Shown piece by piece: positions 351 through 13,213 of a stretch of DNA of 13,213 nucleotides. Both the position numbers and the translations under genes were made by a program. This DNA is from Promethearchaeota archaeon (GTDB lineage Archaea; Asgardarchaeota; Lokiarchaeia; Sigyniarchaeales; Sigyniarchaeaceae), in assembly GCA_016932935.1 (NCBI GenBank), contig JAFGBX010000051.1, positions 1 to 13,213 of the forward strand. Reading direction: 5' to 3'. Below the pieces are notes generated by a model. It had not been told where the DNA came from, searched no databases, and was given only the letters and a program-made list of their open reading frames with translations. Each line of letters starts with the position of its first letter. The first letter of the stretch is position 1.

Positions 351-1658
351 TCAGCACAAGGGGAGGATCTCTGAGCCGCGGCGCACGACCTTCACGCTCG
401 TGCTGCGCCCCGGCGCGACTTGACGCCCCCCAGCGACGAGGTCATGGACGAGTGCTTGGAAGTCGCGTGATCGGACGATGTCGAAGCCGTGCTTGCCGAA
501 GGTCTTCTTGTCGAGGGTGTCCGAGACGACATGCACGTGGCAATGCGCCATCACCTCGCCGACGTGTGCCAAATGCGACGCTTCCAGCAAATGATTGGGT
601 GGTATCGCGCCGCCCTTTACCATCTCGTCGATCTCTGCGGGCGGGTGGTACCCGTGCTCGAGCAAGACGTCGGCATGGGCGGGAGACCAGCCCTCCGTGC
701 ACGGCGCGAGCAAGACGAGGTGCCCGCCGGAGCGAACGAAACTCTTGCAGTTGCATGCGGCCTTCGCGCACAGCCACCAGTCGGCATGCTCGGGAACAGC
801 GTCGGCGACGACGACGTCCGCGGGGTTGCCGACCGGCACGCCGTAGACCTCCCTCGCGACCGCGGCGCCCTGGTATTGGGCGGCGACCGGGTCGCCGAGG
901 CACAACGAGACGACGCGGGAGGCCCCGTCGAGCACCGTGTTCACCAGGAGGTCGATCGGCCGGTGCGCGCCGACCTCGTTGATCGCGTCGCGCACCGGGT
1001 TCCTCGGCACGCCGAGGATCCGCTCGGACGGGTAGGCGGCGCTGGCGTAGTGGATGCGGTTCATCGTGTCCTGGCACGTGAGGCCGGGCAGGAGGATCTT
1101 GTACCCGCCCGAGTACCCGCACACGCGGTGCGGCACGATGTTGCCCAGCCCGACGAGGAACGTGCCCGGCTCGCACGCGACGCGGGCGAGCTTGAGGTCG
1201 TACCCGCCCCGCGCCTTCCCGAAGTTGGCGAGGCCAGACTCGTCCGACCACTCGTGGTCGAGGACGGGCACCTCGTCCACGACGGCCGACCCGAACTTCT
1301 CCCGCTTCTCCTCGCGGGTCATGCGGCGGTGGCTCCCGCCTGCGACGACGATCGAGACGGGCTTTCCAACGGACTTCGCAGCGCGGATGACCGGGGGGAG
1401 CAGCGTTTTGACTGGCGTGACGCGCGTCTGGTCGTCGGACGCGACGAGGATCCTGGCCGACTTCTCCAGCCTTCCACGCTGCTTGGCGAGCTCAGAGGCG
1501 ATGAGCCTCGTGATGGCTGCCACCCCGTCGTGCTTGGCCTTCTCCGGGACTGGCGAGGCGGTGGCGGGAGATACCTCCTCGGCGTGCACGCCCGCGGGGA
1601 GGTCGAGCGGCAATTCCCCGATGCCCCACTTGATGTCGTAATGGTCGTGAGATGCCAT
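351..1658 (-). CDS. larA: LarA-family protein (lactate racemase N-terminal domain / DUF2088; nickel-pincer-cofactor-dependent 2-hydroxyacid racemase/epimerase family).
   Basis: The ORF 351..1808 carries the LarA hallmark motifs: SDDQTRVTP (cf. the DHTRP loop), VCGYSGGYK (the Lys that tethers the NPN cofactor, ~residue 187 counted from MASHD) and conserved His residues near 110 and ~200. The length from MASHDHYDIKWG is 435 aa, typical of LarA. Start set at ATG 1658 (MASHD...). The 50 upstream codons to 1808 are Arg-rich and unlikely to be coding. Confidence 0.8.
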   Translation of the reverse strand: MASHDHYDIKWGIGELPLDLPAGVHAEEVSPATASPVPEKAKHDGVAAITRLIASELAKQRGRLEKSARILVASDDQTRVTPVKTLLPPVIRAAKSVGKPVSIVVAGGSHRRMTREEKREKFGSAVVDEVPVLDHEWSDESGLANFGKARGGYDLKLARVACEPGTFLVGLGNIVPHRVCGYSGGYKILLPGLTCQDTMNRIHYASAAYPSERILGVPRNPVRDAINEVGAHRPIDLLVNTVLDGASRVVSLCLGDPVAAQYQGAAVAREVYGVPVGNPADVVVADAVPEHADWWLCAKAACNCKSFVRSGGHLVLLAPCTEGWSPAHADVLLEHGYHPPAEIDEMVKGGAIPPNHLLEASHLAHVGEVMAHCHVHVVSDTLDKKTFGKHGFDIVRSRDFQALVHDLVAGGRQVAPGRSTSVKVVRRGSEILPLC

Positions 1659-1691
1659 GACCAATTCACGGGGCCGCCGGGAGAAAAGGTT

Positions 1692-1731
1692 GGCCGACCG
1701 TGCGCGCAACCGTGCACGAGTACGGTTGGCC
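1692..1731 (-). other. Imperfect stem-loop (10-bp stem, one G-U/mismatch, ~20-nt loop) in the putative 5' leader of the LarA-like gene.
   Basis: ggccgaccgt (1692-1701) pairs with acggttggcc (1722-1731). It lies 34-73 nt upstream of the LarA ATG at 1658, between the gene and the AT-rich promoter island at 1860-2050. Confidence 0.3.
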
Positions 1732-1951
1732 ATGAGACACCGCTCATTAACCCCGCGCCTCGTGCTAACAAGCCATTTGAATGCCCAATGATTCATATGC
1801 ATCCACATTCACGGGAAGATTGGCGTAGCGGCGTTTCGGTCGTTCTCCAACTGAAGATACTTGGTCGCGTCGGATCTCTTTTATTTGGTTTAACAGATTT
1901 TTGATCAAAAGCAATGTGCGTGGATTGTACCAGGCGCACGACGTTTCCACC

Positions 1952-1980
1952 TTAATAACAATTCCGACTCGCGTTATTAA
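1952..1980. promoter_or_regulatory. 8-bp perfect inverted repeat, TTAATAAC-N13-GTTATTAA, in the divergent larA/Tes1 promoter region. Candidate operator.
   Basis: ttaataac at 1952-1959 and gttattaa at 1973-1980. The site lies inside the AT-rich island between the divergently transcribed genes. Confidence 0.3.
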
Positions 1981-2005
1981 CGCCGAGCGGTTTATCTCTA
2001 TCCGC

Positions 2006-2015
2006 ACGTTTAAAC
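2006..2015 (+). promoter_or_regulatory. TATA-box-like element (cgTTTAAAcc) with a purine-rich BRE-like flank, ~40 nt upstream of the Tes-like gene 1 ATG.
   Basis: gtttaaac sits at 2008-2015, in the AT-rich island, 38-45 nt 5' of ATG 2053. A second TTTATCTC box at 1991-1998 is an alternative. If archaeal, a TSS ~25 nt downstream would leave a very short leader. Confidence 0.3.
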
Positions 2016-2052
2016 CAAACAACAGCATCCCTAAATTCGACGAGGCCTTACG

Positions 2053-3741
2053 ATGGCAATGAATCTTGAAGGTAAGAAGGTCTACAGGCGGACCAAGTCG
2101 GTCTGCCCAGAATGCTTGAAGCAGATCGACGCGAACCTCGTTCTCGACGATCTAGATGGGAATCCGATGGTTCTCATGAGGAAGAAATGCAGCGAGCACG
2201 GCTACTTCGAGGACATCATCAGCCGGAACCCGCCAGAATACGAGAGGAACCAGAAATACTACCACGACTACGTGACCATCGAGAACAAGGACAACGTGCA
2301 CGACACGGGGAAGGGTTGCCCGCACAACTGCGGTATGTGCGCCGAGCATAAATCATCACCATGCATCGTCTTGATCGACATCACGAACCGGTGCAACCTG
2401 GCGTGCCCGATCTGCTTCGCCAACGCGTCGGCGAAGGGCTACCTCGTTGAGCCGACCATGGAGGAACTGCGCATGATCTTGCAGCACTTCCGGGACATCA
2501 AGCCGATCCCGCCCGTCTTGTTGCAGATATCCGGCGGCGAGCCCACGGTTCGGGACGATCTCGTGGACTTCATCCGAATGGGCAAGGAGATGGGCTTCGT
2601 CCAGATCATGCTCACGACGAACGGCCTCAAGCTCGCGGCCCGCAACGGCCCCCAATACATCAAGGAGCTGCACGAGGCCGGTATGGGCGCTATTTACCTG
2701 AGCTTCGACTCTGCCGACGATCCCGAGGTGTACAAGAAGGTTCGCGGCGTCAATTTGCTCGCCCAGAAGAAGCGCGTGATCGAGAACTGCCGCAAGGCGG
2801 GTTACGTCGGCGTGACGCTCGTGCCGACGATCGCACGGGGCATGAACGACCACCAGGTAGGGCCGATCATGCAGTACGCGATGGACAACCACGACGTCGT
2901 CACCGGCGTCGTGTTCCAGCCCGTGGCTCTCTGCGGCCGCGTCGACAACGAGCAGATCCGCGAGCTCCGGTACACGACCAGCGACCTCACGCGGGAGCTG
3001 GCGCGCGTCACGAAGCGCCAGGACACATATATCTTCCCCATCCCCGCCATCTCGAACATGACCAAGCTCATGGGCTGGTACGACTTCGCGCCCCAGTTCT
3101 CGATGGCGTCGCACCCCGATTGCGGCTTCGCGACGATTATGATTCCCGACAAAGAGGGCCGCTGGCACGGCATCGAGGAATGGTTCGAAGCGGACGGTTT
3201 CATCAAGTGGACCGACCACGTCTGGGGGATGGTTGAGAAGGGCGAGTGGCCCAACATGACCGACAAGTTCATCGCACCGCTGGCGAAGCTGTTCGGGGAG
3301 CAAGTCGGGAACGTGATCAACCAGGCCTCGGACTTCGCGTACCGAAAGGCCATCAAGGCCTATTACATGGCCGGCGCCATGCGTTACATCAAGGGCTTCG
3401 ACGGGCCCGTCGAGGAGTTCATCCCCATGGTCTTGAACCCCAACATCACGACATCATCACAGTTCTTCGAGGCGGGCAAGTCCATGCTCGTGAGCTCGAT
3501 GCACTTCCAGGACGTCTACAACTTCGACATCGAGCGCGTCCAGCGCTGCCTCGTGCACTACGGCACGATCGATCCCGACCACCCGGGCAAGGTGCTTCAG
3601 GTGCCCTTCTGCGCGATGAACTCGATCCACCGGGAGGCCATCGAGACCAAGATCGCCAAGGCCAAGTACAAGGTCAACGCGACCGAGATCAACGCGAAGG
3701 CGCGAGAGTTCCTCGAGAAGGAAGTCGTCGGCACCCAGTAA
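2053..3741 (+). CDS. Radical SAM enzyme, tetraether lipid synthase (Tes / GDGT-MAS)-like, paralog 1 (562 aa).
   Basis: The canonical radical-SAM motif CNLACPIC (CX3CX2C) is followed by SGGEPT (a glycine-rich SAM-binding motif). A second upstream CX3CX2C (CPHNCGMC) and an N-terminal CPEC...CSEH rubredoxin/Zn-ribbon-like Cys/His cluster are present, plus a ~300 aa C-terminal domain. Size and multi-cluster layout match what I recall of the Tes/GDGT-MAS family, but the family assignment is made by eye only. High-GC codon usage. ~75% identical to the 5333..7027 protein. Confidence 0.8.
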   Translation: MAMNLEGKKVYRRTKSVCPECLKQIDANLVLDDLDGNPMVLMRKKCSEHGYFEDIISRNPPEYERNQKYYHDYVTIENKDNVHDTGKGCPHNCGMCAEHKSSPCIVLIDITNRCNLACPICFANASAKGYLVEPTMEELRMILQHFRDIKPIPPVLLQISGGEPTVRDDLVDFIRMGKEMGFVQIMLTTNGLKLAARNGPQYIKELHEAGMGAIYLSFDSADDPEVYKKVRGVNLLAQKKRVIENCRKAGYVGVTLVPTIARGMNDHQVGPIMQYAMDNHDVVTGVVFQPVALCGRVDNEQIRELRYTTSDLTRELARVTKRQDTYIFPIPAISNMTKLMGWYDFAPQFSMASHPDCGFATIMIPDKEGRWHGIEEWFEADGFIKWTDHVWGMVEKGEWPNMTDKFIAPLAKLFGEQVGNVINQASDFAYRKAIKAYYMAGAMRYIKGFDGPVEEFIPMVLNPNITTSSQFFEAGKSMLVSSMHFQDVYNFDIERVQRCLVHYGTIDPDHPGKVLQVPFCAMNSIHREAIETKIAKAKYKVNATEINAKAREFLEKEVVGTQ

Positions 3742-4244
3742 TCCCTTCCATTCATTTTTCCAGCTATAACCTGAAGTCTTTCACTTGTACTAGGCGATTT
3801 CCTATGTTCTAGCAGATCTAGCAGAATCTGCATGATTGATAGATTACGCCCTTCACGGGCGTAATCATCGCCCGTGAAGAAGATGATTACGAGGGGCGGG
3901 CCGACCGATGCCTCGAGCACGGCGAGCAATTTGACAAACCACCAGTTCTTCCCGTCGAAGAAGACGTCACGTATGAAGAGAAGCAAGAAGATGTTGGCCA
4001 CGGCGTTCATCGTGAACGAGGCGTACGATGAGAGGGCCACGTAATCGAACACCTCGCGCCAGTCTGGATTAAGGCCGTTGACCGTGAAGACGACGTAGTC
4101 GATGGCAGCGTCGAGGACGAGGAACCCGACCATATCCCGCAGATGTCGGACGGTTCGTGCCTTTCCCACCTCATACTTCATCGCGAGCAAGATGAAGACG
4201 ACCAGGGCGATGGCCGAAGCGAGGATGGCGCCCGCGTAGGCCAT
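3597..4244 (-). CDS. Small polytopic membrane protein (about 4 TM helices). The 3' extent is uncertain.
   Basis: The ORF starts at ATG 4244, directly after an in-frame TAG and downstream of an AT-rich island. The first ~135 aa (MAYAGAILASAIALVVFILLA...VGPPLVIIFFTGDDYAREG) form 4 clear hydrophobic helices with GC-rich codons. The remaining ~80 codons run through the AT-rich hairpin region and overlap the Tes1 3' end by 145 nt, so they may be a non-coding read-through of the ORF. Confidence 0.45.
   Translation of the reverse strand: MAYAGAILASAIALVVFILLAMKYEVGKARTVRHLRDMVGFLVLDAAIDYVVFTVNGLNPDWREVFDYVALSSYASFTMNAVANIFLLLFIRDVFFDGKNWWFVKLLAVLEASVGPPLVIIFFTGDDYAREGRNLSIMQILLDLLEHRKSPSTSERLQVIAGKMNGRDYWVPTTSFSRNSRAFALISVALTLYLALAILVSMASRWIEFIAQKGT
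3843..3867. terminator. Perfect 10-bp-stem hairpin (GATTACGCCC-ttcac-GGGCGTAATC) between convergent genes, with a partial repeat of one arm downstream (cgcccgtgaag at 3869-3879) that allows alternative pairing.
   Basis: The palindrome can be read directly in the sequence. It is flanked by tagcagatctagcagaatctgca (direct/inverted repeats at 3811-3833). It lies 100 nt past the Tes1 stop. Confidence 0.4.
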
Positions 4245-4469
4245 CTACTGGTAATCGTAGGTGAAGAACTGGTGCATAGGCTCATGATCCTCTTTCTCTG
4301 AGCCTCCTTAAAGTCATTCCTTATCCTCGTTAGGTGCTTTAAGAGGATCATATTATTTCACATGCTTTGGATTGTGCTATCCCCCAGCGATGACTATTTA
4401 TCCCCGCGGAGCATATCAAGCTCATCCGGTGCCGCCCAGGGAAAGGCGCGCGCCGGGGTGGGAAAAGCC

Positions 4470-4670
4470 ATGGGAAGCGACAAGCAAGCGGTAGCCGCGC
4501 CCCCCGGGCTCGGCCTGGAGGACGGCGTGGTCATGTTCACGCGCAAGCCTGCAAAGATGGGCGACGATTACATCTTCTGGATCCCGCGCGTTTACGTGCG
4601 GAATGGTCTCGTTGACACGTCGGTCGAGTACGAGATCTACTTGCGCAAGGTACCGGGGCGGAAGGACTGA
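4470..4670 (+). CDS. Small protein (66 aa), possibly an AbrB/MazE/SpoVT-like swapped-hairpin DNA-binding domain.
   Basis: ATG 4470 is preceded by GGGGTGGG with 7-nt spacing (SD-like), with an AT-rich TATA-like ACTATTTATCC at 4391-4400. The product MGSDKQAVAAPPGLGLEDGVVMFTRKPAKMGDDYIFWIPRVYVRNGLVDTSVEYEIYLRKVPGRKD fits the ..IP+.h.+.hGL..GD.VEh.h pattern of AbrB-type domains only loosely. The longer 4362 start would code through the AT-rich promoter island. Confidence 0.4.
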   Translation: MGSDKQAVAAPPGLGLEDGVVMFTRKPAKMGDDYIFWIPRVYVRNGLVDTSVEYEIYLRKVPGRKD

Positions 4671-4773
4671 TGCGAGGTGCTGGAGGTTAGCCGGTGGCGG
4701 AGGAAGGGAGGATGAGCGGGCCCGGCCGCCCGGCGCGCATATTTCGGGAAATCTTGGGAGAGAGGGAAGTTTT

Positions 4774-4816
4774 TGCGCCACGGCGCAGCGCGAAAAGAAG
4801 CGGCTTCGCGCGCCGG
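4774..4816. other. Pair of GC-rich hairpins (tgcgcc-ac-ggcgca; gcgcgaa-N10-ttcgcgc) in the ORF-free spacer.
   Basis: gcgcgaa (4788-4794) pairs with ttcgcgc (4805-4811). An adjacent smaller stem sits at 4774-4787. The pair lies ~105-145 nt past the stop of the 4470..4670 ORF. It could be a terminator or part of a structured RNA. Confidence 0.3.
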
Positions 4817-5332
4817 GTTTCGCGGCCCAGGCCCGCTCGCGGTTAATTCACTTCGGCATCGGCCGCACCCTCTTCATTTTCCTCTTACAAGCCATGCAGT
4901 ATCCGCCCTCGGCATCCATCCCTGTCATGGTGGCTCCCGTGTTGCACCAGGGGCGCGTCACCACAACTTTGTGCTTCTCCGTCCGCATGGTTGCGATCGC
5001 GACAATCTGCCTATGGTACGCTCTATGGTCGACGCCGTGGTATTTATCATTGCTCTGTCCACGTGCCCCCGGCGCGTGTCGTCGAACGGGAGTTCACGGA
5101 TGAATCCTGGTGTCTGGTGAGCTCGGAAGAATTACACTGGATGGGTCGTTAAGCGAACAAAAGGCTGTTGAAGCGCGTCCATTTCGGTCTTGCTGATAGA
5201 ATGATGATGATGCCGAACAATACGATGCGGTTTATTGCCTGGGGCTAAAACCAACCGAACGGAAGCGGGATGAGCGAAAGAATTCGACACTGGAAGAGAA
5301 ATGAGGTGAGAAATACATCCAAGGGCGGTGCA

Positions 5333-7027
5333 TCAATTCCCGACTTCCTTCTCGAGGAACTCCTTGGCCTTGGCAGTGATCTCGTTCGCGTCGAGCTTGA
5401 CGTTCTGAACAGCGATCCTCTTCTCGACGTTCTCGCGGTGGATGCTGTTGAAGGCGCAGAATGGCACCTGCAGCACGTCGCCGGGGCGGTCGGGATCCAT
5501 CATACCATAATGGACGAGGCAGCGCTGGACGCGCTCGATGTCGAAGTTATAGACGTCCTGGAAGTGCATACTCGAGATCAAGAGGTTGTTGCCGTGTTCA
5601 AAGAAGCTCGCTGCCGTTTCGAGCCCTGGGCTGAGCATGATGGGGATGAAGTCGGAAACCGGCCCGCTGATGCCCTTCAAGTAACGCATGGCACCGCCCA
5701 TGAAGTAGGCCTTGATCGCCTTGCGGTACGCGAAGTCCGAGGCCTGGTTGATCACGTTCCCGACCTTTTCCCCGAATAACTTCGCCAGCGGCCCGATCAA
5801 CTTCTCGGAGAAAGTGGGCCACTGATTCTTGCATACGAAATCGTCCCAAACCTTGTCTCCCCACTTCAATAAGCCGTCCACATCGAACCAGTCCTCCACG
5901 CGCATCCATTTACCCGTCTTGGTATCGATTGACATGACCGTGGCAAACCCGCAGTCGGGGTGCGAGGCCATAGTGAACTGGGACGAGTAATCGTACCAGG
6001 CGATCAGCTTCGTGAGGTTGCTCGTGGCGGGGATCGGGTAGATGTAATTGTTCGTGATGCCCACCGCCTCGCCGATGGCTTTGGAGAGGTCGCTGGTCGT
6101 GTACCGGAGCTCGCGGATCTGCTCGTTGTCGATGCGGCCGCAGAGCGACACGGGCTGGAACACGACGCCCGAGACCACGTCACGGTTCGCCTTCGCGAAC
6201 TCCATGATCGGCCCGACCTGGTGGTCGCTCACGCCCTTGGCGATCGTGGGGACGAGCATGACGCCCTTGAAACCGGCTTTGCGGCAGTTCTCGATCACGC
6301 GCTTCTTCTGGGGGAGCAAGTTGACGCCCCTCGCCTTCCTATACACCTCGGGATCGTCGGCAGAGTCGAAGCTCAGGTAAATAGCGTTGAGGCCGGCAGC
6401 CATCAGATCCTTTATGTATTGCGGGCCGTTGCGGGCCGCGAGCTTGAGGCCGTTCGTCGTGAGCATGATCTCGACGAAGCCCAGCTCCTTGCCCATGCGG
6501 ACGATCTCGACGAAATCGTCGCGCACGGTGGGCTCGCCGCCGGAGAGCTGGAGTAACACGGGAGGGATCGGCTTGATGCTCCGGAAGTGGGTCATGATCG
6601 TGCGCAGCTCGTCCAGCGTCGGTTCCACGACGTATCCCTTGGCGGAAGCGTTGGCGAAGCAGATCGGGCACGCCAGGTTGCACCGGTTCGTGACGTCGAT
6701 CAAGGCGATGCAGGGCGACGACTTGTGCGCGTCGCACATACCGCACTCGTGGGGGCAGTTTTTCCCTGAGCGCTCCCCGTGCTTCTTGTTCTCGATCGTG
6801 CAATAATCATGGTAATATTGCTGGTTGCGCTCGTATTCTTGCGGGTTCCGGCTGATGATGTCCTCGAAGTACCCGTGCTCGCTGCACTTCTTCCTCATGA
6901 GCACGGCGTCCTTCCCCTCGAGCTCGTCGAGCACGAGGTTCGCGTCGATCTGCTTCAAGCACTCGGGGCAAACGGACTTGGTACGCCGGTACAGTTTCTT
7001 GCCTTCCAGGTTGGGTTCCATGGTCAT
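5333..7027 (-). CDS. Radical SAM enzyme, tetraether lipid synthase (Tes / GDGT-MAS)-like, paralog 2. 564 aa from ATG 7027, or 562 aa from ATG 7021.
   Basis: Same architecture as paralog 1: CPEC...CSEH, CPHECGMC, CNLACPIC and SGGEPT motifs. It is alignable to paralog 1 over the full length without gaps of note, at roughly 75% identity. ATG 7021 (MEPNLEGKK) has a GGAAGG/AAGGA SD-like motif 6-7 nt upstream, so the true start may be 7021. Confidence 0.8.
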   Translation of the reverse strand: MTMEPNLEGKKLYRRTKSVCPECLKQIDANLVLDELEGKDAVLMRKKCSEHGYFEDIISRNPQEYERNQQYYHDYCTIENKKHGERSGKNCPHECGMCDAHKSSPCIALIDVTNRCNLACPICFANASAKGYVVEPTLDELRTIMTHFRSIKPIPPVLLQLSGGEPTVRDDFVEIVRMGKELGFVEIMLTTNGLKLAARNGPQYIKDLMAAGLNAIYLSFDSADDPEVYRKARGVNLLPQKKRVIENCRKAGFKGVMLVPTIAKGVSDHQVGPIMEFAKANRDVVSGVVFQPVSLCGRIDNEQIRELRYTTSDLSKAIGEAVGITNNYIYPIPATSNLTKLIAWYDYSSQFTMASHPDCGFATVMSIDTKTGKWMRVEDWFDVDGLLKWGDKVWDDFVCKNQWPTFSEKLIGPLAKLFGEKVGNVINQASDFAYRKAIKAYFMGGAMRYLKGISGPVSDFIPIMLSPGLETAASFFEHGNNLLISSMHFQDVYNFDIERVQRCLVHYGMMDPDRPGDVLQVPFCAFNSIHRENVEKRIAVQNVKLDANEITAKAKEFLEKEVGN

Positions 7028-7978: not shown

Positions 7979-8539
7979 TCAATTGATGAGCACTGCCGGT
8001 GCACTCGTGGCGTGGTCGAAGGCGGCTTGCACCGGCATCAGTAGGCAGATCGCCGCCATGATGCCAATGACCAGCAAGACCTCCCTGTCCCTGGCTTCAT
8101 CGATCACGCTGGCCTTTATTTCACGAGAATTCTTTTCGATCTCAGCGATAGAAATCCCGCCTCTTCGGATGATCAAGCGCCTGGGGAATCCCTCTACCAT
8201 TATCTGCATGATGTCGGATCCGATCGCGCTCTCGTACTCGTAGGCATAATCGAAGCCGTCCGCCTTCCGGTTGACGATCCCGAATATCGCAAGGCCTCCC
8301 TCTCCATCGAGAGCGGCCCGCCTCGGCACGAGGATGCGGCAATGCTGGTCGCGGTCGCTCGTGGCCTCGAGGACGAGCGCGACCTCGTGCCGCGAGTTCA
8401 TCACGAATGACGACATCCCCCTCTGGTCTAGCTCCACCCGGATACTGCCCGCCAGCATCCCGTCGCTGTTTTCCAGCAAATACGCTTCGGCACGTTTGTC
8501 GTACCTGCACTTGAAGAACCAGCCCTTTTTTATGGCCAT
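7979..8539 (-). CDS. PH-domain-like protein with a C-terminal transmembrane anchor (tail-anchored). Function unknown.
   Basis: ATG 8539 has a strong SD (AAGGAGG, 8-nt spacer). The N-terminus MAIKKGWFFKCRYDKRAEAYLLENSDGMLAGSIRVELDQ...FVMNSRHEVALV resembles the PH/bPH fold signature (KKGWhhK ... hxhxx). The single C-terminal hydrophobic helix is LLVIGIMAAICLLMPV. The upstream 41 codons of the 8662 ORF lie in an AT-rich island and are excluded. Confidence 0.55.
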   Translation of the reverse strand: MAIKKGWFFKCRYDKRAEAYLLENSDGMLAGSIRVELDQRGMSSFVMNSRHEVALVLEATSDRDQHCRILVPRRAALDGEGGLAIFGIVNRKADGFDYAYEYESAIGSDIMQIMVEGFPRRLIIRRGGISIAEIEKNSREIKASVIDEARDREVLLVIGIMAAICLLMPVQAAFDHATSAPAVLIN

Positions 8540-8808
8540 CGGATCCGCCTCCTTCCAACTTGTTCCTCCATGAGAATCCTCACAGAACCTTATGCTATGA
8601 ACATACGACCGCGACAACAATGTTCCTACTGAATCTATATACTCCCCACTTCGAATCATCAAGATTGCAGTAAGATTTCATGCCGCCGTGCAATAACCTT
8701 CTGCGCATGATATCCAAGGATTCTGAGGCGGTTCTTGGCTGTTGAGGATGCCATCTCTTTTTTTGATGCGCGGATGCCCTCGGGCCATCATACTCCCGCC
8801 CGCCTGCC

Positions 8809-9759
8809 TCAACCGGCGCGGTCGTCCTTCGCGCCGAGGGCCGCCTTGTCGGCGCCCTCCAGCTTCTTGACGGAGCTCTTGTAGAGATCGGGAAGCTTCA
8901 AGGGCTCCGTGAAGCCACCGCGCTCGAACAGCTTCCAGGCCTCGAGTTTCGCGACGGCGTCCAACTCGGCGTCGCTCCTGATCCTGCCCGGCCTCTCCTC
9001 AATGGCCTCCTCACCGGTCGCATACAAGTGCGGGTTTTCCTGGACGTCCTTCACCCAGCGGCGCAACGAGGCCCCGATGGCCGCCCAGTTGAGGAAATTT
9101 GAGAAGAGGTTCTTGATCGCTGCCTGGTCCTTGAACAGGCCGTCGAACGGCGGGTTGAACGCGGCCAGATCCGTATTGCCGTCGAACCGACCGGCCCGCT
9201 TCCGTTCGTCCTTGGGGACGAGCTCGTCGCCCGGAAGGATGCAGTTGCTCCCCGCCGTGAACAGTGGCGACTCGTACCCCGTCGGGCCGGCGTAGGTTCT
9301 TTCGTACTCGTCGATCTTGGATCCGTTCGATCCACCGCCGCCCCGCCTATGTGGTTTCCAGGATGAAGGCGTGGATCGCCTGGCGCGCTGCTTGTTCCTG
9401 AACCCGGTGGGGCTCGGGTAGTCGTCCTCGCCGCTAGCCCCGACGGGTATGCCCATGAAAGACTTGCGCTCCCCGCCGAGGTAGACGCCGCAATGCGGGC
9501 ACCGCATCCCAACGCGGACGCGGCTCGGCAGAACCCGGCCACAGCCGCCGCACGTCCTCGTCGACCACGCGAGGCCGGGTATGCCCCGGAAGCTGCCGTC
9601 GTTGCACGCAATCATGCCGATGATGATGGCCGCGATGATGCCGTAGTAGATGAGGTCGTCGAAGAAGAACAAGGGGTTCGCGAAGGAAAGAACCAGGAGC
9701 GCCGTGGCGAGGATGGAGCAGATGATCACGAGCGTCCGCTTTGTTGGATCCATTGGCAT
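8809..9759 (-). CDS. Membrane-anchored zinc-ribbon protein with a disordered Gly/Arg-rich linker and a ~150 aa C-terminal domain of unknown function.
   Basis: Two N-terminal TM helices (LVIICSILATALLVLSF; LIYYGIIAAIIIGMIA) are followed by a C-x2-C-x16-C-x2-C zinc ribbon (CGGCGRVLPSRVRVGMRCPHCG), a low-complexity RRGGGGSNG linker and a C-terminal domain. Start is ATG 9759 (MPMDPTKR) or 9753. An AT-rich TATA-like island lies upstream at 9780-9860. Confidence 0.55.
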   Translation of the reverse strand: MPMDPTKRTLVIICSILATALLVLSFANPLFFFDDLIYYGIIAAIIIGMIACNDGSFRGIPGLAWSTRTCGGCGRVLPSRVRVGMRCPHCGVYLGGERKSFMGIPVGASGEDDYPSPTGFRNKQRARRSTPSSWKPHRRGGGGSNGSKIDEYERTYAGPTGYESPLFTAGSNCILPGDELVPKDERKRAGRFDGNTDLAAFNPPFDGLFKDQAAIKNLFSNFLNWAAIGASLRRWVKDVQENPHLYATGEEAIEERPGRIRSDAELDAVAKLEAWKLFERGGFTEPLKLPDLYKSSVKKLEGADKAALGAKDDRAG

Positions 9760-9892
9760 GGTGATCTCACGAACATCTGTTGGAAGGTGAATGACCACGA
9801 CCTTCGATTCAGTGATCGAGATATAGATGCCACGGGAGAATATTTAAAATGGTTTCATCCAGAAACGGCGGCATGGCGCCACCGAGCCGTGC

Positions 9893-10543
9893 TCACACCC
9901 TGCCCGGCAAGAAATAGCGTGTCCCGTCCTTGTAAGACACGTCCTTGCGGAGCAGCCCGGTTCGGAGCAGGTGACTGAGTACCCTCGCTAGGCGGACATC
10001 TGCCCAGTGCAGGGTTATCTTCAGCTCGGCCTCGCTCATGAACTCCTTGCCCTTGAATAGCCCCAGCACGGTTGCCCCATCCATGTACGCCTCGGATTGT
10101 TTGATCGCGAGGTAATGCTCCCCGTCCTGGTGGATCTCGTCGAAGGGCTTGTCCTTGATCTTGCAAGCCTTCCGGATGTGGTCTATCGAAACGAGGGCTT
10201 TGAGCGAGCTGCTCCCGAAGTCCTTGAGTATCGCAGGTAAGGCCAGGATGCCCCCCGTCGAGCCGATGGCTGACTCGAGGATAGCCTTGATTCTCAAAGC
10301 GAGGAGATCGATGCGGGGCTCCACGGTTCCTGGCGCGAGGATCTCGGAATACGAGTCCTTGGGTATGACCTTCACGTAGTTGTCGGTCGATGAAATGACG
10401 ATCGCCCTGTCTCCCTTGTTCAGGGAGAACTCGGAATCGGCCCTGACGAGATCCAACGTGCCAGCCTCGTGGCGAACCATGCCGTTCCCCCGAGCCTGGT
10501 TCCACAAGTCCACGGTCACGACAGCACCGACGGGCACCTTCAT
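9893..10543 (-). CDS. NfeD-like OB-fold domain protein (no TM segment) fused to C-terminal winged-helix (wHTH, TrmB/MarR-like) domain(s).
   Basis: ATG 10543 has a GAGGTG SD-like motif 11 nt upstream and lies 53 nt after the flotillin stop. The N-terminal ~65 aa (GAVVTVDL...VRHEAGTLDLVRADSEFSLNKGDRAIVISSTDNYVKVIP) matches the NfeD C-terminal beta-barrel pattern (V.V.GE.W.A.S-..I..GE.V.V....L.V). The C-terminal MSEAELKITLHWADVRLARVLSHLLRTGLLRKDVSYKDGTRYFLPG is a classic wHTH with wing. A second WH-like segment (ILALPAILKDFGSSSLKALVSID...GEHYLAIK) precedes it. Confidence 0.6.
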   Translation of the reverse strand: MKVPVGAVVTVDLWNQARGNGMVRHEAGTLDLVRADSEFSLNKGDRAIVISSTDNYVKVIPKDSYSEILAPGTVEPRIDLLALRIKAILESAIGSTGGILALPAILKDFGSSSLKALVSIDHIRKACKIKDKPFDEIHQDGEHYLAIKQSEAYMDGATVLGLFKGKEFMSEAELKITLHWADVRLARVLSHLLRTGLLRKDVSYKDGTRYFLPGRV

Positions 10544-10596
10544 CGATCGCACACCTCGAAAAAGAGAAAGAGGATGACGCAAAAGAAGCTATCGCA

Positions 10597-11880
10597 TCAC
10601 CTGCCCGACGCCGCGGCCTGGGCGGTCTTCGTGGCAAGCCCGACCTTGGCGATAAGCTCGGAAAGGCCGCCCTGGAGCAGCCCGGACTGAAGCAGCGCAT
10701 CGATCTTCGGCAAGAAGTTACCGAGGAAGTTGCCGTCCGAGTTCCCATTACCACCCGAGGGCAGATAGATGATCTTGTTGTTCGGCCCGACTGCCTTTGC
10801 TATCTGCTCCGCGGAATCGACTTGTGCCTTGGCGAGGAGTTCGAGGATCTTCATCTGCGCCGTCGTCTCGTTGTATTGCTTCATCGCCTCGGCCTTCTGC
10901 CGGATGGCATCAGCCTCAGCGATGCCCCTGAGGCGGATGCCCTCGGCCTCCGCCTCGAGCTTGAGCTTGACAGCATTACTGTCCGCCTGGGCCTTGATCG
11001 ACACTGCCTCCGAATCCGCCTTGGCGAGCATTATCTTCTTGTTGCGCTCGATCTCGGCCATCTTCTCCGCGTTCTGCTGTTCGACCTTCAAGCGCTTCTC
11101 CTCGAGCACGAGCTTCTGCTCCGACGCGAGCTTCTCACGCTCGTAGTGGGCGACCTCCTCCTCCTTCTTCATCTGCTCGCTCTTAACCTTGGCGTCCTTC
11201 TCCTTCTCGACCTCGATCTTGACCGCCTCGGAGTCGTGGGTGGCCTCGGAGATACGCGCGTTGCGTCGGAGCTCGGCGATCTTGACCTTCTCGAGCGAAG
11301 CTATGACGTCGGATCCCTCGATGTCCCGGATATTCTTGATGTCGAAAATCACGGGCGAGAGGCCGAGCTTGGACAGCGCGTCTTGCACCATCGCATAGAT
11401 GGCTTTTTCGATCTCCTCCCGGTTCTTCATGATCTCGAGGATGTTGCGCTCCATCGCCACGGAGCGTGCCGCCGACATAACCGTGTCCTCGACGACCTTC
11501 GAGATCGTGCTGTGGTCGATTGTCGTGAGGGTCGCTGCTGACTTTGGCGGGTCGGTCACCTGCACCTTGACCGATATCTCGACACCGAAGGGCAGCTTGT
11601 CCACGTCGTGCAGCTTGATGAGCTGGGGCTCGATGTCAAGCACGTGTTTCGGGATGATGGTTCGCCCGTGGAAGACCCGCAGGAACACGTACCTGCCCGA
11701 GCCATCATACTGAGTGATCCTTTTACCATGGCTGACGACGTGCACCTCGTTAAAAGGCACGACGACCAGCGACTTAAAATAAATGCCGACGACGATCATG
11801 GCGGCGATCCCGCCGATGACACATGCAAGGATCCCGCCGACGAGGTTGAAGTCCACCTGGAGATGCTGTGCTTGGATCAT
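10597..11880 (-). CDS. floT: Flotillin (SPFH/band-7 family, FloT-like) membrane scaffold protein.
   Basis: An N-terminal TM helix (ILACVIGGIAAMIVVGIYF) is followed by an SPFH domain and a long Glu/Ala/Lys-rich coiled-coil with EA repeats (AEAEGIRLRGIAEADAIRQKAEAMK) typical of flotillins. A GAGGA SD-like motif lies 6 nt upstream of ATG 11880. Confidence 0.85.
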   Translation of the reverse strand: MIQAQHLQVDFNLVGGILACVIGGIAAMIVVGIYFKSLVVVPFNEVHVVSHGKRITQYDGSGRYVFLRVFHGRTIIPKHVLDIEPQLIKLHDVDKLPFGVEISVKVQVTDPPKSAATLTTIDHSTISKVVEDTVMSAARSVAMERNILEIMKNREEIEKAIYAMVQDALSKLGLSPVIFDIKNIRDIEGSDVIASLEKVKIAELRRNARISEATHDSEAVKIEVEKEKDAKVKSEQMKKEEEVAHYEREKLASEQKLVLEEKRLKVEQQNAEKMAEIERNKKIMLAKADSEAVSIKAQADSNAVKLKLEAEAEGIRLRGIAEADAIRQKAEAMKQYNETTAQMKILELLAKAQVDSAEQIAKAVGPNNKIIYLPSGGNGNSDGNFLGNFLPKIDALLQSGLLQGGLSELIAKVGLATKTAQAAASGR

Positions 11881-11967: not shown

Positions 11968-11985
11968 GTGAAACATATGTTTCAC
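11968..11985. promoter_or_regulatory. Perfect 18-bp palindrome GTGAAACATATGTTTCAC in the divergent promoter region between the flotillin cluster and the WH/Pro-rich gene. Candidate operator for a dimeric regulator.
   Basis: Read directly. It is 88 nt upstream of the flotillin ATG at 11880 and 127 nt upstream of ATG 12112, inside the AT-rich island. Confidence 0.4.
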
Positions 11986-12111: not shown

Positions 12112-13213
12112 ATGAGCGACGAGAAGAAGCCTTCGACGATGTTTGAACTAATGCAGATGTCGCAAAAGAAGCAAGAATCCGAGAAAGGAAAGAAAAAAAA
12201 GGACAAGGACAAGGACAAGGAGAAGGACGTCCAAGAGAGCCAGGAGTTGGACGAGAAGCTCTTCGGCAAGGCCTCGGTCGCGGCACCCGGTGGTGCAGCT
12301 GCCCCGGCGGGGCCGAGCTCGAGAGACTTGTTCTCGCTGCTCGAGGAGACGGACAAGGAGGCAAAAGCGGCCCTCAAAGCACAGCTCCTCGACGCGATCG
12401 AGGCCATGGCACAGGCCTATGCTGAGATACCGATCAACCGGATCGCGAAGCGCGTCAGGGAGGAGGCCGAGGAGGCCGTCCTCGCAGTGCTCGAGGAGAT
12501 GATCATCGGCGGCCTCATCAAGGCGCGGCTCGCCCCCGACCGGATCCTCCCCGCGGATGGCTCCAGCAAGATCCAGGTCGACCGTGGCGCTGCGGGGGTA
12601 CAACCCAAGTCACAGCCCGCTCCCTCGCCCCCGGTCGCGACGAGCAAGCCCGAGCCGCCCTCGGCAGCATCGGGCGCGCCCGCCGAGCCGGGGCCTGCCA
12701 AAGAAGCCAAGCCACGCCCGTCCATGGAGGACGTGCCACCAGCCCCTTCCATCCCTCCGGTTCCCGCGCCGGCGGCACCAAGGCCGGCGCCACCACCCGT
12801 TCCATCGATCCCAAGGATCGAAGCACCCCCGGCGATATCCATCGGCGTTGGGGCGCCGGCGCCAAGCCCACCGCCAGAGCCGGCGGTCGAACCGCCAGCG
12901 CCGGCAGCTCCCGCAGTCGAGGAAATACCCGATTTTCCCAATCCCGATTCGATCGAGGCCCCGCCCGGTGCGATCCCGGTTCCCGCTCCCGCGCCGGCCC
13001 CGGCACCCGTGGCGTCCCAACCAGCCCCGCCCGCGTCGAGGCCCCTTGGGGGGCTCAAGCCCATGGGGAAGATGCCGATCCCCAGCCCGGCCCGGGCCGG
13101 GATGGTGAAGCCCGCTCCGCCGGTTTCCCCGGCGCCCGTCGCGCCGGTGGTGCCGTCCGCGCCGGTGGTGCCGTCCGCGCCGGTGGTGCCGTCCGCGCCG
13201 GTGGTGCCGTCCG
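12112..13213 (+). CDS. Hypothetical protein, 3'-truncated by the window edge. It has an acidic/Lys-rich N-terminus, a PCI-like winged-helix domain and a long Pro/Ala-rich low-complexity tail with APVVPS tandem repeats.
   Basis: Manual translation from ATG 12112 has no stop to the window end (367 codons): MSDEKKPSTMFELMQMSQKKQESEKGKKKKDKDKDKEK...IPINRIAKRVREEAEEAVLAVLEEMIIGGLIKARLAPDRILPADG...(P/A-rich)...APVVPSAPVVPSAPVVPSAPVVPS. The six-frame track omits it because there is no stop inside the window. The opposite-strand ORFs here are G/A/R-rich shadows. Confidence 0.6.
   Translation, partial: MSDEKKPSTMFELMQMSQKKQESEKGKKKKDKDKDKEKDVQESQELDEKLFGKASVAAPGGAAAPAGPSSRDLFSLLEETDKEAKAALKAQLLDAIEAMAQAYAEIPINRIAKRVREEAEEAVLAVLEEMIIGGLIKARLAPDRILPADGSSKIQVDRGAAGVQPKSQPAPSPPVATSKPEPPSAASGAPAEPGPAKEAKPRPSMEDVPPAPSIPPVPAPAAPRPAPPPVPSIPRIEAPPAISIGVGAPAPSPPPEPAVEPPAPAAPAVEEIPDFPNPDSIEAPPGAIPVPAPAPAPAPVASQPAPPASRPLGGLKPMGKMPIPSPARAGMVKPAPPVSPAPVAPVVPSAPVVPSAPVVPSAPVVPS
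12201..12228 (+). repeat. Hexanucleotide tandem repeat (GGACAA)x3 plus degenerate copies, encoding DKDKDKEKD. It is immediately preceded by an A8 homopolymer (12193-12200).
   Basis: Read directly: ggacaaggacaaggacaaggagaaggac. It is in-frame inside the 12112 CDS. Confidence 0.8.
13141..13213 (+). repeat. Perfect 18-bp tandem repeat gcgccggtggtgccgtcc, at least 4 copies, continuing off the window edge. It encodes (APVVPS)n.
   Basis: Four identical 18-mers run from 13141 to 13212 in the frame of the 12112 CDS. Being cut by the window edge, the copy number is unknown. Confidence 0.9.

Follow-up and report, generated by a model that had tools for sequence, protein, structure and literature searches.

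A flotillin gene with an NfeD-type OB/ESCRT-II-like winged-helix partner, next to zinc-ribbon and Tubby-like genes in a Sigynarchaeia-like Asgard archaeon

NfeD-type OB folds dock on SPFH partners in bacteria and in Thermococcales, and winged helices of the ESCRT-II type are a hallmark common to eukaryotes and Asgard archaea. Operons that join an SPFH gene to an NfeD gene are widespread in prokaryotes, and a eukaryotic NfeD homologue has not been described (PMC11222466). Bacterial examples with a flotillin are yuaF-floT of Bacillus subtilis and floA-nfeD of Staphylococcus aureus; in the latter, FloA oligomers are stabilised by the OB domain of NfeD, which binds to the FloA coiled coil (PMC11222466). 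An archaeal SPFH operon is that of the Pyrococcus horikoshii stomatin PH1511 and protease PH1510 (STOPP; see also PH0471), whose partner protein carries at its C-terminus the OB domain closest to the one described below. Among prokaryotes, ESCRT-II homologues are known from Asgard archaea, and their variants there were catalogued by Makarova et al. 2024 (PMC10936438), who also link an SPFH protein by context to ESCRT-related domains in the "Meth_adaptin" loci of Methanomicrobia. SPFH-like baskets have also been seen by electron cryo-tomography under the membrane of another Asgard archaeon, with no partner named (bioRxiv 10.1101/2025.11.06.686947). The present analysis concerns four genes, flotillin included, of a 13,213-nt stretch of DNA (contig JAFGBX010000051.1 of assembly GCA_016932935.1; hereafter the window) from a Sigynarchaeia-like Asgard archaeon whose nearest relatives carry the labels Sigynarchaeota or Sigynarchaeum.

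Comparison of the window with related loci, labelled L001 to L025, leads to a reading that we consider probable, if only just. The four genes would represent two separately conserved pairs that are neighbours in this clade and whose association is recurrent but facultative. The first, pair A, would be an SPFH-NfeD-type operon in which an ESCRT-II-like tandem winged helix has taken the place of the partner's membrane anchor; the second, pair B, consists of a zinc-ribbon membrane protein gene and one or two Tubby-like genes.

The flotillin gene and its OB/winged-helix partner

The minus strand of 7979-11880 carries four open reading frames (ORFs) that agree with the NCBI gene calls JW839_02520 to 02530 plus flotillin, as expected from the original prediction of four same-strand genes. 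In gene order from flotillin, they are separated by 53, 133 and 269 nt; the gaps had been called short, which holds for the first junction and not for the other two.

The first gene (10597..11880, minus strand) encodes a 427-aa protein in which the anticipated flotillin was readily recognized. It matches Pfam Band_7 (PF01145; expect value (E) 3.9e-19, 69.8 bits vs a cut-off of 23.6), its C-terminal half resembles bacterial FloT (NCBIfam, E 1.6e-21, profile positions 285-451 corresponding to residues 222-392), and its best match among PDB sequences is human flotillin-1 (E 9.4e-16), of which residues 206-398 correspond to residues 198-390 here. The protein is laid out as a single N-terminal hydrophobic anchor (about residues 14-36, in a hydrophobic segment lying within residues 7-44; hydropathy), an SPFH domain and an EA-rich coiled-coil region, and it is 57-89% identical to the flotillins of related loci.

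The second gene (9893..10543, minus strand, 216 aa) starts at ATG 10543, with GAGGTG 8 nt 5' of the ATG, and its product, hereafter OB-WH, had been described as an NfeD-winged-helix protein. This description can now be made more specific. The AlphaFold2 model, built on a 12-sequence alignment (predicted local distance difference test (pLDDT) 91.2), comprises a five-strand barrel (residues 8-61), a helix (residues 78-91) and two winged-helix units, each of the form H-(H)-H-beta-beta. Residues 1-65 (10349..10543, minus strand) form a five-stranded OB fold of the type found in the partner-binding C-terminal domain of NfeD, with P. horikoshii 1510-C (TM-score 0.73) and the PH0471 NfeD C-domain (TM-score 0.61) as the closest Foldseek matches. 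Residues 78-216 (9896..10312, minus strand) form a tandem winged-helix region similar to ESCRT-II Vps22/EAP30: the family profile matches human SNF8/Vps22 (E 1.7e-10), yeast Vps22 (5.6e-10) and Vps36 (1.1e-3), and in a Foldseek search of the PDB the best four matches of this region are all ESCRT-II chains. With Pfam EAP30, the window protein reaches 24.8 bits vs a cut-off of 26.8, and in a precomputed table PF04157 is recorded for all 12 family members, some of these matches being weak or faint.

The OB-WH gene lies directly downstream of a flotillin gene, in the same orientation, in all eight distinct loci having upstream sequence (the window, L001, L014, L005/6/7, L008/9, L010, L016 and L017). 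The gap is 3-58 nt in the loci measured, which do not include L017. In L018, the gene is preceded at 58 nt by a 74-aa ORF whose similarity was not checked. These loci span 34-100% identity, Sigynarchaeia-like and Promethearchaeota metagenome-assembled genomes (MAGs), and widely differing surroundings. Pattern-based contig scans for the family, which are insensitive, returned one locus in genomes and three in metagenomes. Conservation is unevenly distributed along the protein, with 22 of the 34 invariant columns of the family falling within the OB domain, where K2, P4, D12, W14, R34, F39 and K43 are invariant; at Lokiarchaeia distance the OB domain is 52-57% identical, flotillin 57% and the winged helices 24-34%. 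Since OB identity tracks that of flotillin while the winged helices diverge, these figures would fit a conserved OB-flotillin contact with faster-evolving winged helices turned outward. These data support the flotillin and OB-WH genes as a robust functional pair, conserved separately from pair B.

The mode of contact may be proposed by analogy: as the OB domain of S. aureus NfeD binds the FloA coiled coil (PMC11222466), the OB domain here would most likely dock on flotillin in a similar manner. Flotillin, with its transmembrane anchor, SPFH domain and coiled coil, would assemble on the cytoplasmic face of the membrane, and the OB domain would tether the soluble OB-WH protein to this assembly. 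The winged-helix pair would then be displayed as a protein-protein interaction module that either pairs with itself or recruits a lineage-specific partner, possibly proteins of the ESCRT-II/III type.

Alternatively, OB-WH could be a DNA-binding winged-helix regulator of the flotillin operon or another nucleic-acid-binding OB/WH protein. The winged-helix region is mildly basic, with a net charge of +1 to +8 in 11 of 12 members, which would suit such a role and is not decisive on DNA binding. A conserved palindromic element is also present upstream of the flotillin gene. This perfect 18-bp palindrome, GTGAAACATATGTTTCAC (11968..11985), is located between the divergently transcribed flotillin gene and a Pro-rich gene and occurs once in the window, a match reached in none of 200 shuffles. 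Its core, ACATATGTTT, is kept at the same place in L001, L014 and L011, in the last of which flotillin is deleted, and the element may be a promoter or an operator. Against a regulator, the sequence similarity of OB-WH is specific to Vps22 and Vps36, whose winged helices bind proteins, the OB domain matches specifically the NfeD partner-binding type and is the most conserved part of the protein, and the gene is always downstream of flotillin, at only 3 nt in L005, as is typical of a structural partner. A regulatory role thus seems improbable and the protein is better read as a flotillin partner.

Other features of pair A loci may be mentioned here. The 53 nt that separate the flotillin stop codon from the start of OB-WH (10544-10596) are T-rich (CTTTTT, TCTTTT) and might act as a partial archaeal terminator; the spacing in L005 is the 3 nt given above. 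In L010, a Promethearchaeota MAG, an actin-like gene (3856-4857, minus strand, 333 aa) follows directly downstream of the pair, and genes for small Arf/Ras-type GTPases occur several kb from the pair in L005 and L008, as they also do in L022. Two zinc-ribbon proteins encoded upstream of flotillin were considered as counterparts of that of the window and neither is homologous to it: a 165-aa protein in L005, of a type with two transmembrane helices and a C-terminal ribbon that is common to L016 and absent from L010, and a 201-aa protein in L008 that is soluble and Elf1-like.

The zinc-ribbon and Tubby-like genes

The third gene (8809..9759, minus strand) encodes 316 aa from ATG 9759, or 314 aa from ATG 9753, the NCBI start two codons later. 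Its predicted nature as a membrane zinc-ribbon protein is borne out by two hydrophobic transmembrane helices (about residues 10-27 and 36-52; hydropathy) followed by C70/C73/C87/C90 in a CxxC...CxxC arrangement. Beyond the ribbon, a basic linker, itself variable, leads to a C-terminal domain of ca. 170 aa, which is strongly conserved. Searches of Pfam, NCBIfam and PDB sequences gave only weak zinc-ribbon similarity, and none for the C-terminal domain. The family comprises 6 clusters among 5.8 billion proteins, plus a 379-aa homologue in L022 (38-41% identity).

The fourth gene (7979..8539, minus strand, 186 aa) starts at ATG 8539, with GGAGG upstream; the earlier start first assumed (7979..8662) is an upstream TTG. 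Its product had been taken for a PH-like, tail-anchored protein. In the structural model, some 12 strands precede a hydrophobic helix (about residues 151-167), an arrangement that agrees with the 12-stranded beta-barrel around a hydrophobic C-terminal helix of the Tubby/LURP-one/scramblase superfamily and not with the seven-stranded beta-sandwich capped by a C-terminal helix of PH domains, so that the PH-like assignment is wrong. The gene is thereby predicted to encode a Tubby/LURP-one-like beta-barrel protein (the PHb paralogue, see below). In this superfamily the barrel is filled by the strongly hydrophobic C-terminal helix, which in the scramblases was once taken for a transmembrane helix (PMC2639001), and for this reason the "tail anchor" of the fourth gene product is probably a barrel-core helix and the tail-anchored assignment probably wrong as well. 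No Pfam family, LOR, Tub and Scramblase included, was matched by the window protein (E up to 0.1), nor by five further members and the PHa of L001 (E up to 1), and a profile of 14 Tubby-like sequences found nothing relevant among PDB sequences. Only nine representatives of the family were found among 1.84 billion proteins, and its members are short (181-210 aa).

Tandem Tubby-like paralogues, PHa and PHb, occur in L001, L011, L012, L013, L019 and L025. With PHa as query, tblastn detected only PHb in the window, and both genes in L001, L011, L012 and L013; the L014 contig ends after PHa. In the window, the position at which relatives have PHa (186-196 aa) is occupied by the 269-nt gap (8540..8808, minus strand), the 3' part of which aligns to the PHa-PHb spacer. 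These alignments indicate that the window has lost PHa and that the gap marks its site. L022 carries a fused pair in the form of a 385-aa protein (3067-4224) with two tandem Tubby-like domains and one hydrophobic helix each, which suggests that the separate PHa and PHb act as a heterodimer.

TATA-like boxes were read from the sequence upstream of both genes, TTTTAAATA (9841..9849, minus strand) before the zinc-ribbon gene and TATATAGA (8634..8641, minus strand) before the Tubby-like gene, and the third and fourth genes probably have promoters of their own. L013 and L014 both have TTTAAATAT at the position that corresponds to the zinc-ribbon box of the window, and L013 retains it despite deletion of its flotillin pair; around TATATAGA, ca. 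100 nt can be aligned with the stretch that separates PHa from PHb in relatives.

One or more Tubby-like genes come after the zinc-ribbon gene in each of its seven loci, the distant L022 among them, and on account of this constant adjacency the two are regarded as a second conserved pair. The membrane protein of pair B would cross the membrane twice and carry its zinc ribbon on the cytoplasmic side, besides the conserved C-terminal domain, and it would be accompanied by one or two Tubby-like barrels that would most likely act as its peripheral lipid- or protein-binding partners.

Relation of the two pairs and flanking genes

Pairs A and B adjoin, with all four genes co-oriented, in three genomes (the window, L001 and L014). 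Deletion has removed the flotillin gene and nearly the whole OB-WH gene from L011 and L013, where the last ca. 20 OB-WH codons are fused to the flotillin upstream region (L011 1479-1541; L013 about 5400-5450). Both loci keep the zinc-ribbon gene and the two Tubby-like genes intact, the zinc-ribbon promoter being retained in L013; in L011, an IS66-like transposase gene (1640-3010) lies between the OB-WH remnant and the zinc-ribbon gene. Since the remnants persist, the four-gene order is ancestral in the clade. Elsewhere the pairs occur apart: pair A is found without pair B in the four more distant lineages sampled (L005, L008, L010 and L016, of Lokiarchaeia-type and other loci), and Tubby-like pairs are found with neither an SPFH nor a zinc-ribbon gene nearby in L019 and L025.

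A different arrangement is seen in L022, where the order is the zinc-ribbon homologue, the fused Tubby-Tubby gene, a 333-aa membrane protein, a 387-aa Band_7 protein, a carbonic-anhydrase-like protein and another Tubby-like protein. The 387-aa SPFH protein (Band_7 E 6e-32) is only 20% identical to the window flotillin and is non-orthologous to it, and the samples that yielded L022 also yielded a flotillin/OB-WH pair at another, unrelated locus (L008/L009). The zinc-ribbon and Tubby-like relatives are therefore not scattered with respect to SPFH genes; they are linked to them in two independent arrangements, that of the window clade and that of L022, the latter being a real but single additional support for a tie of pair B to SPFH microdomains.

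The 333-aa protein of L022 (4744-5745) is encoded directly upstream of the SPFH gene and has an N-terminal part of ca. 150 aa made of SGHD(A/V/M/F) His/Asp repeats, which look metal-binding, followed by transmembrane segments and a beta-rich C-terminus. This layout fits a canonical NfeD, and no match was found in Pfam, NCBIfam or the PDB, nor by hhalign against the OB-WH alignment.

The original prediction had proposed a single four-gene module, and in its present form such a membrane-microdomain module would have the flotillin cage organising the zinc-ribbon and Tubby-like lipid-binding proteins as clients, with OB-WH as adaptor. The ancestral four-gene order and its retention in three genomes would agree with this, as would L022, which looks like an in-situ replacement of one SPFH system by another. 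Against it stand the survival of pair B after deletion of pair A, the loci that hold pair A or Tubby-like genes alone, the 133-nt and 269-nt gaps and their TATA-like boxes, which suggest separate transcription, and the presence of a flotillin/OB-WH pair elsewhere in the samples behind L022. One module of this kind is thus conceivable but doubtful. What stands of the proposal is the two conserved pairs and their recurrent link to SPFH genes; an obligate unit it is not, as the pairs occur separately. Because pair B outlasts the deletion of pair A, yet adjoins a different SPFH gene in L022, a functional link between the two is possible but would be facultative, and pair B may serve SPFH microdomains as a client or an accessory, in an association that is dispensable.

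Conversely, the juxtaposition might carry no meaning at all, the genes being neighbours by recent common descent and OB-WH a divergent NfeD whose winged helices serve self-association only. The whole neighbourhood (HisRS, the Pro-rich gene, ADK and Tes) is syntenic among close relatives, so that the A-B adjacency in the close clade counts as a single evolutionary event, and NfeD of S. aureus mainly stabilises flotillin oligomers via OB-OB contacts (PMC11222466). Should the winged helices only self-associate, the finding would shrink to an interesting but ordinary variant of an NfeD partner. However, the adjacency within pair A holds at 34-40% identity in quite different contexts and that of the zinc-ribbon and Tubby-like genes at 38% identity in the rearranged L022 locus, and since each pair stays together at low identity in changed surroundings, selection appears to act on each. 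The position of pair B beside a second kind of SPFH gene is also unlikely to be pure chance, though it is one observation. Taken together, we see a meaningless juxtaposition as rather unlikely.

Several points weigh against the two-pair, NfeD-type reading that we prefer. No hydrophobic segment was found in four OB-WH members (Kyte-Doolittle window >= 1.6), in contrast with canonical NfeD, which has a membrane segment, and neither four N-terminal OB domains (E up to 10) nor the whole protein matches Pfam NfeD. Homology to NfeD is for these reasons one of fold and context only, and we infer an NfeD-like partner in its working while not filing the protein as NfeD by sequence. ESCRT genes, including vps23, vps28 and vps25, are absent from the vicinity of every OB-WH locus examined. 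The model of the fourth gene product is of moderate confidence (pLDDT 65.7, predicted template modelling score 0.68, four sequences), the relatives all come from MAGs or metagenome contigs and represent few independent lineages, and the A-B adjacency inside the close clade could be plain inherited synteny.

Among the flanking genes, two convergent Tes-like radical SAM paralogues (2053-3741, plus strand; 5333-7027, minus strand) are 73% identical to each other and score 433.8 and 449.5 bits, both just under the 450 bits required by the NCBIfam tetraether-lipid-synthase profile. In relatives, too, two copies are retained near ADK. Tes genes are found near the cluster only in close relatives (L001, L012 and L022), the flotillin pair of L005, L008 and L010 having none nearby, and the "membrane-remodelling island" that had been suggested from these lipid synthase paralogues therefore comes down to lineage synteny. 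The 1.6 kb between them (3742-5332) holds unconserved ORFs only; a 215-aa ORF at 3597-4244 was rejected as a gene, its C-terminus being merely the antisense of a Tes 3' end and the ORF not being conserved. At the equivalent position, L012 carries a 1002-aa SIR2_2 and TPR protein of defence-like architecture, and this inter-Tes stretch, rather than the flotillin cluster, may be the variable spot. On the other side, the gene divergent from flotillin (12112-13213, plus strand) runs off the window end and encodes a Pro/Ala-rich protein whose N-terminus is rich in lysine and which has tandem PVVPSA repeats where the window ends. Its L001 homologue has 570 aa and a conserved globular C-terminus. The protein has no Pfam or PADLOC match and its gene and the cluster are syntenic in all five relatives with contigs extending that far (L001, L011, L013, L014 and L019).

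Some defence systems include SPFH-domain proteins, and the cluster had alternatively been proposed as an anti-virus defence or abortive-infection island built on such a protein. The zinc-ribbon and Tubby-like families are indeed tiny and patchy, and an insertion sequence is present at the locus in L011. However, no PADLOC-DB profile matched any of the four proteins, PHa or three neighbours (E up to 0.1), and no relatives of the zinc-ribbon or OB-WH families were found on IMG/VR viral contigs. The cluster has no nucleases, ATPases or other effectors and lies amid conserved, syntenic housekeeping genes (HisRS, ADK, Tes), and its flotillin is highly conserved, unlike typical fast-turnover defence genes. 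A role in defence is thus unsupported and very improbable.

Comparison with described systems

The literature combining NfeD with ESCRT or Asgard archaea yielded nothing relevant, and the covered parts of the text and supplements of PMC10936438 contain no NfeD(OB)/EAP30 fusion and no Asgard flotillin pair. Within the literature searched, the OB/EAP30 fusion appears undescribed. The OB-WH protein joins the SPFH-NfeD and ESCRT-II worlds in one polypeptide, and its place beside flotillin is conserved both in Sigynarchaeia-like and in Promethearchaeota MAGs, two Asgard groups. Tentatively, and with a low probability in our estimate, the flotillin cage might recruit a Vps22-like adaptor via the NfeD-type OB domain and so physically couple SPFH microdomains to ESCRT-type machinery for sorting or remodelling, with the zinc-ribbon and Tubby-like proteins as accessory membrane-recognition parts. 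If true, this would be a prokaryotic assembly of flotillin, ESCRT-II winged helices and a Tubby-like barrel, which are parts of eukaryotic endocytic and membrane-signalling pathways. The locus offers a testable handle on how Asgard SPFH cages connect to other machinery and on whether flotillin-ESCRT cooperation predates eukaryotes. The analysis further defines two tiny orphan families, the zinc-ribbon membrane protein with its conserved C-terminal domain and the Tubby-like barrel, and for the latter corrects a mis-annotation, the hydrophobic core helix being tempting to read as a tail anchor.

Compared with the Tubby, LURP-one (DUF567) and scramblase proteins, the Tubby-like family shares the hydrophobic helix that is easily mistaken for a membrane anchor (PMC2639001) and differs in its short proteins, its tandem or fused pairs, its linkage to a zinc-ribbon gene and its lack of Pfam-clan and PDB sequence matches. 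With respect to the P. horikoshii operon, the SPFH protein PH1511 is of the stomatin type and that of the window of the flotillin type; PH1510 is a membrane serine protease with a C-terminal OB domain, whereas OB-WH has its OB domain at the N-terminus and neither a protease domain nor a transmembrane segment. Compared with Vps22/SNF8 (PF04157) and Vps36, OB-WH lacks the N-terminal helical domain through which Vps22 and Vps36 pair and has the OB fold instead, with a single helix (residues 78-91) before the winged helices. According to the criteria for Asgard Vps22 in the parts of PMC10936438 covered here, OB-WH also differs in that the steadiness box (cog.002769) was not seen and the gene is not beside vps23, vps28 or vps25.

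The closest likeness in gene order is with the bacterial flotillin-NfeD operons, from which the window locus departs by its Asgard host, by a partner with no membrane segment and no Pfam NfeD sequence match, and by the C-terminal ESCRT-II-like tandem winged helix, which is on no NfeD described in the literature searched. Finally, the "Meth_adaptin" loci, as presented in the covered parts of PMC10936438, provide another contextual link in archaea between an SPFH protein and ESCRT-related domains. There, the SPFH gene stands amid Vps4 and ESCRT-III genes, whereas here, with no ESCRT gene nearby, the link takes the form of a domain fusion.

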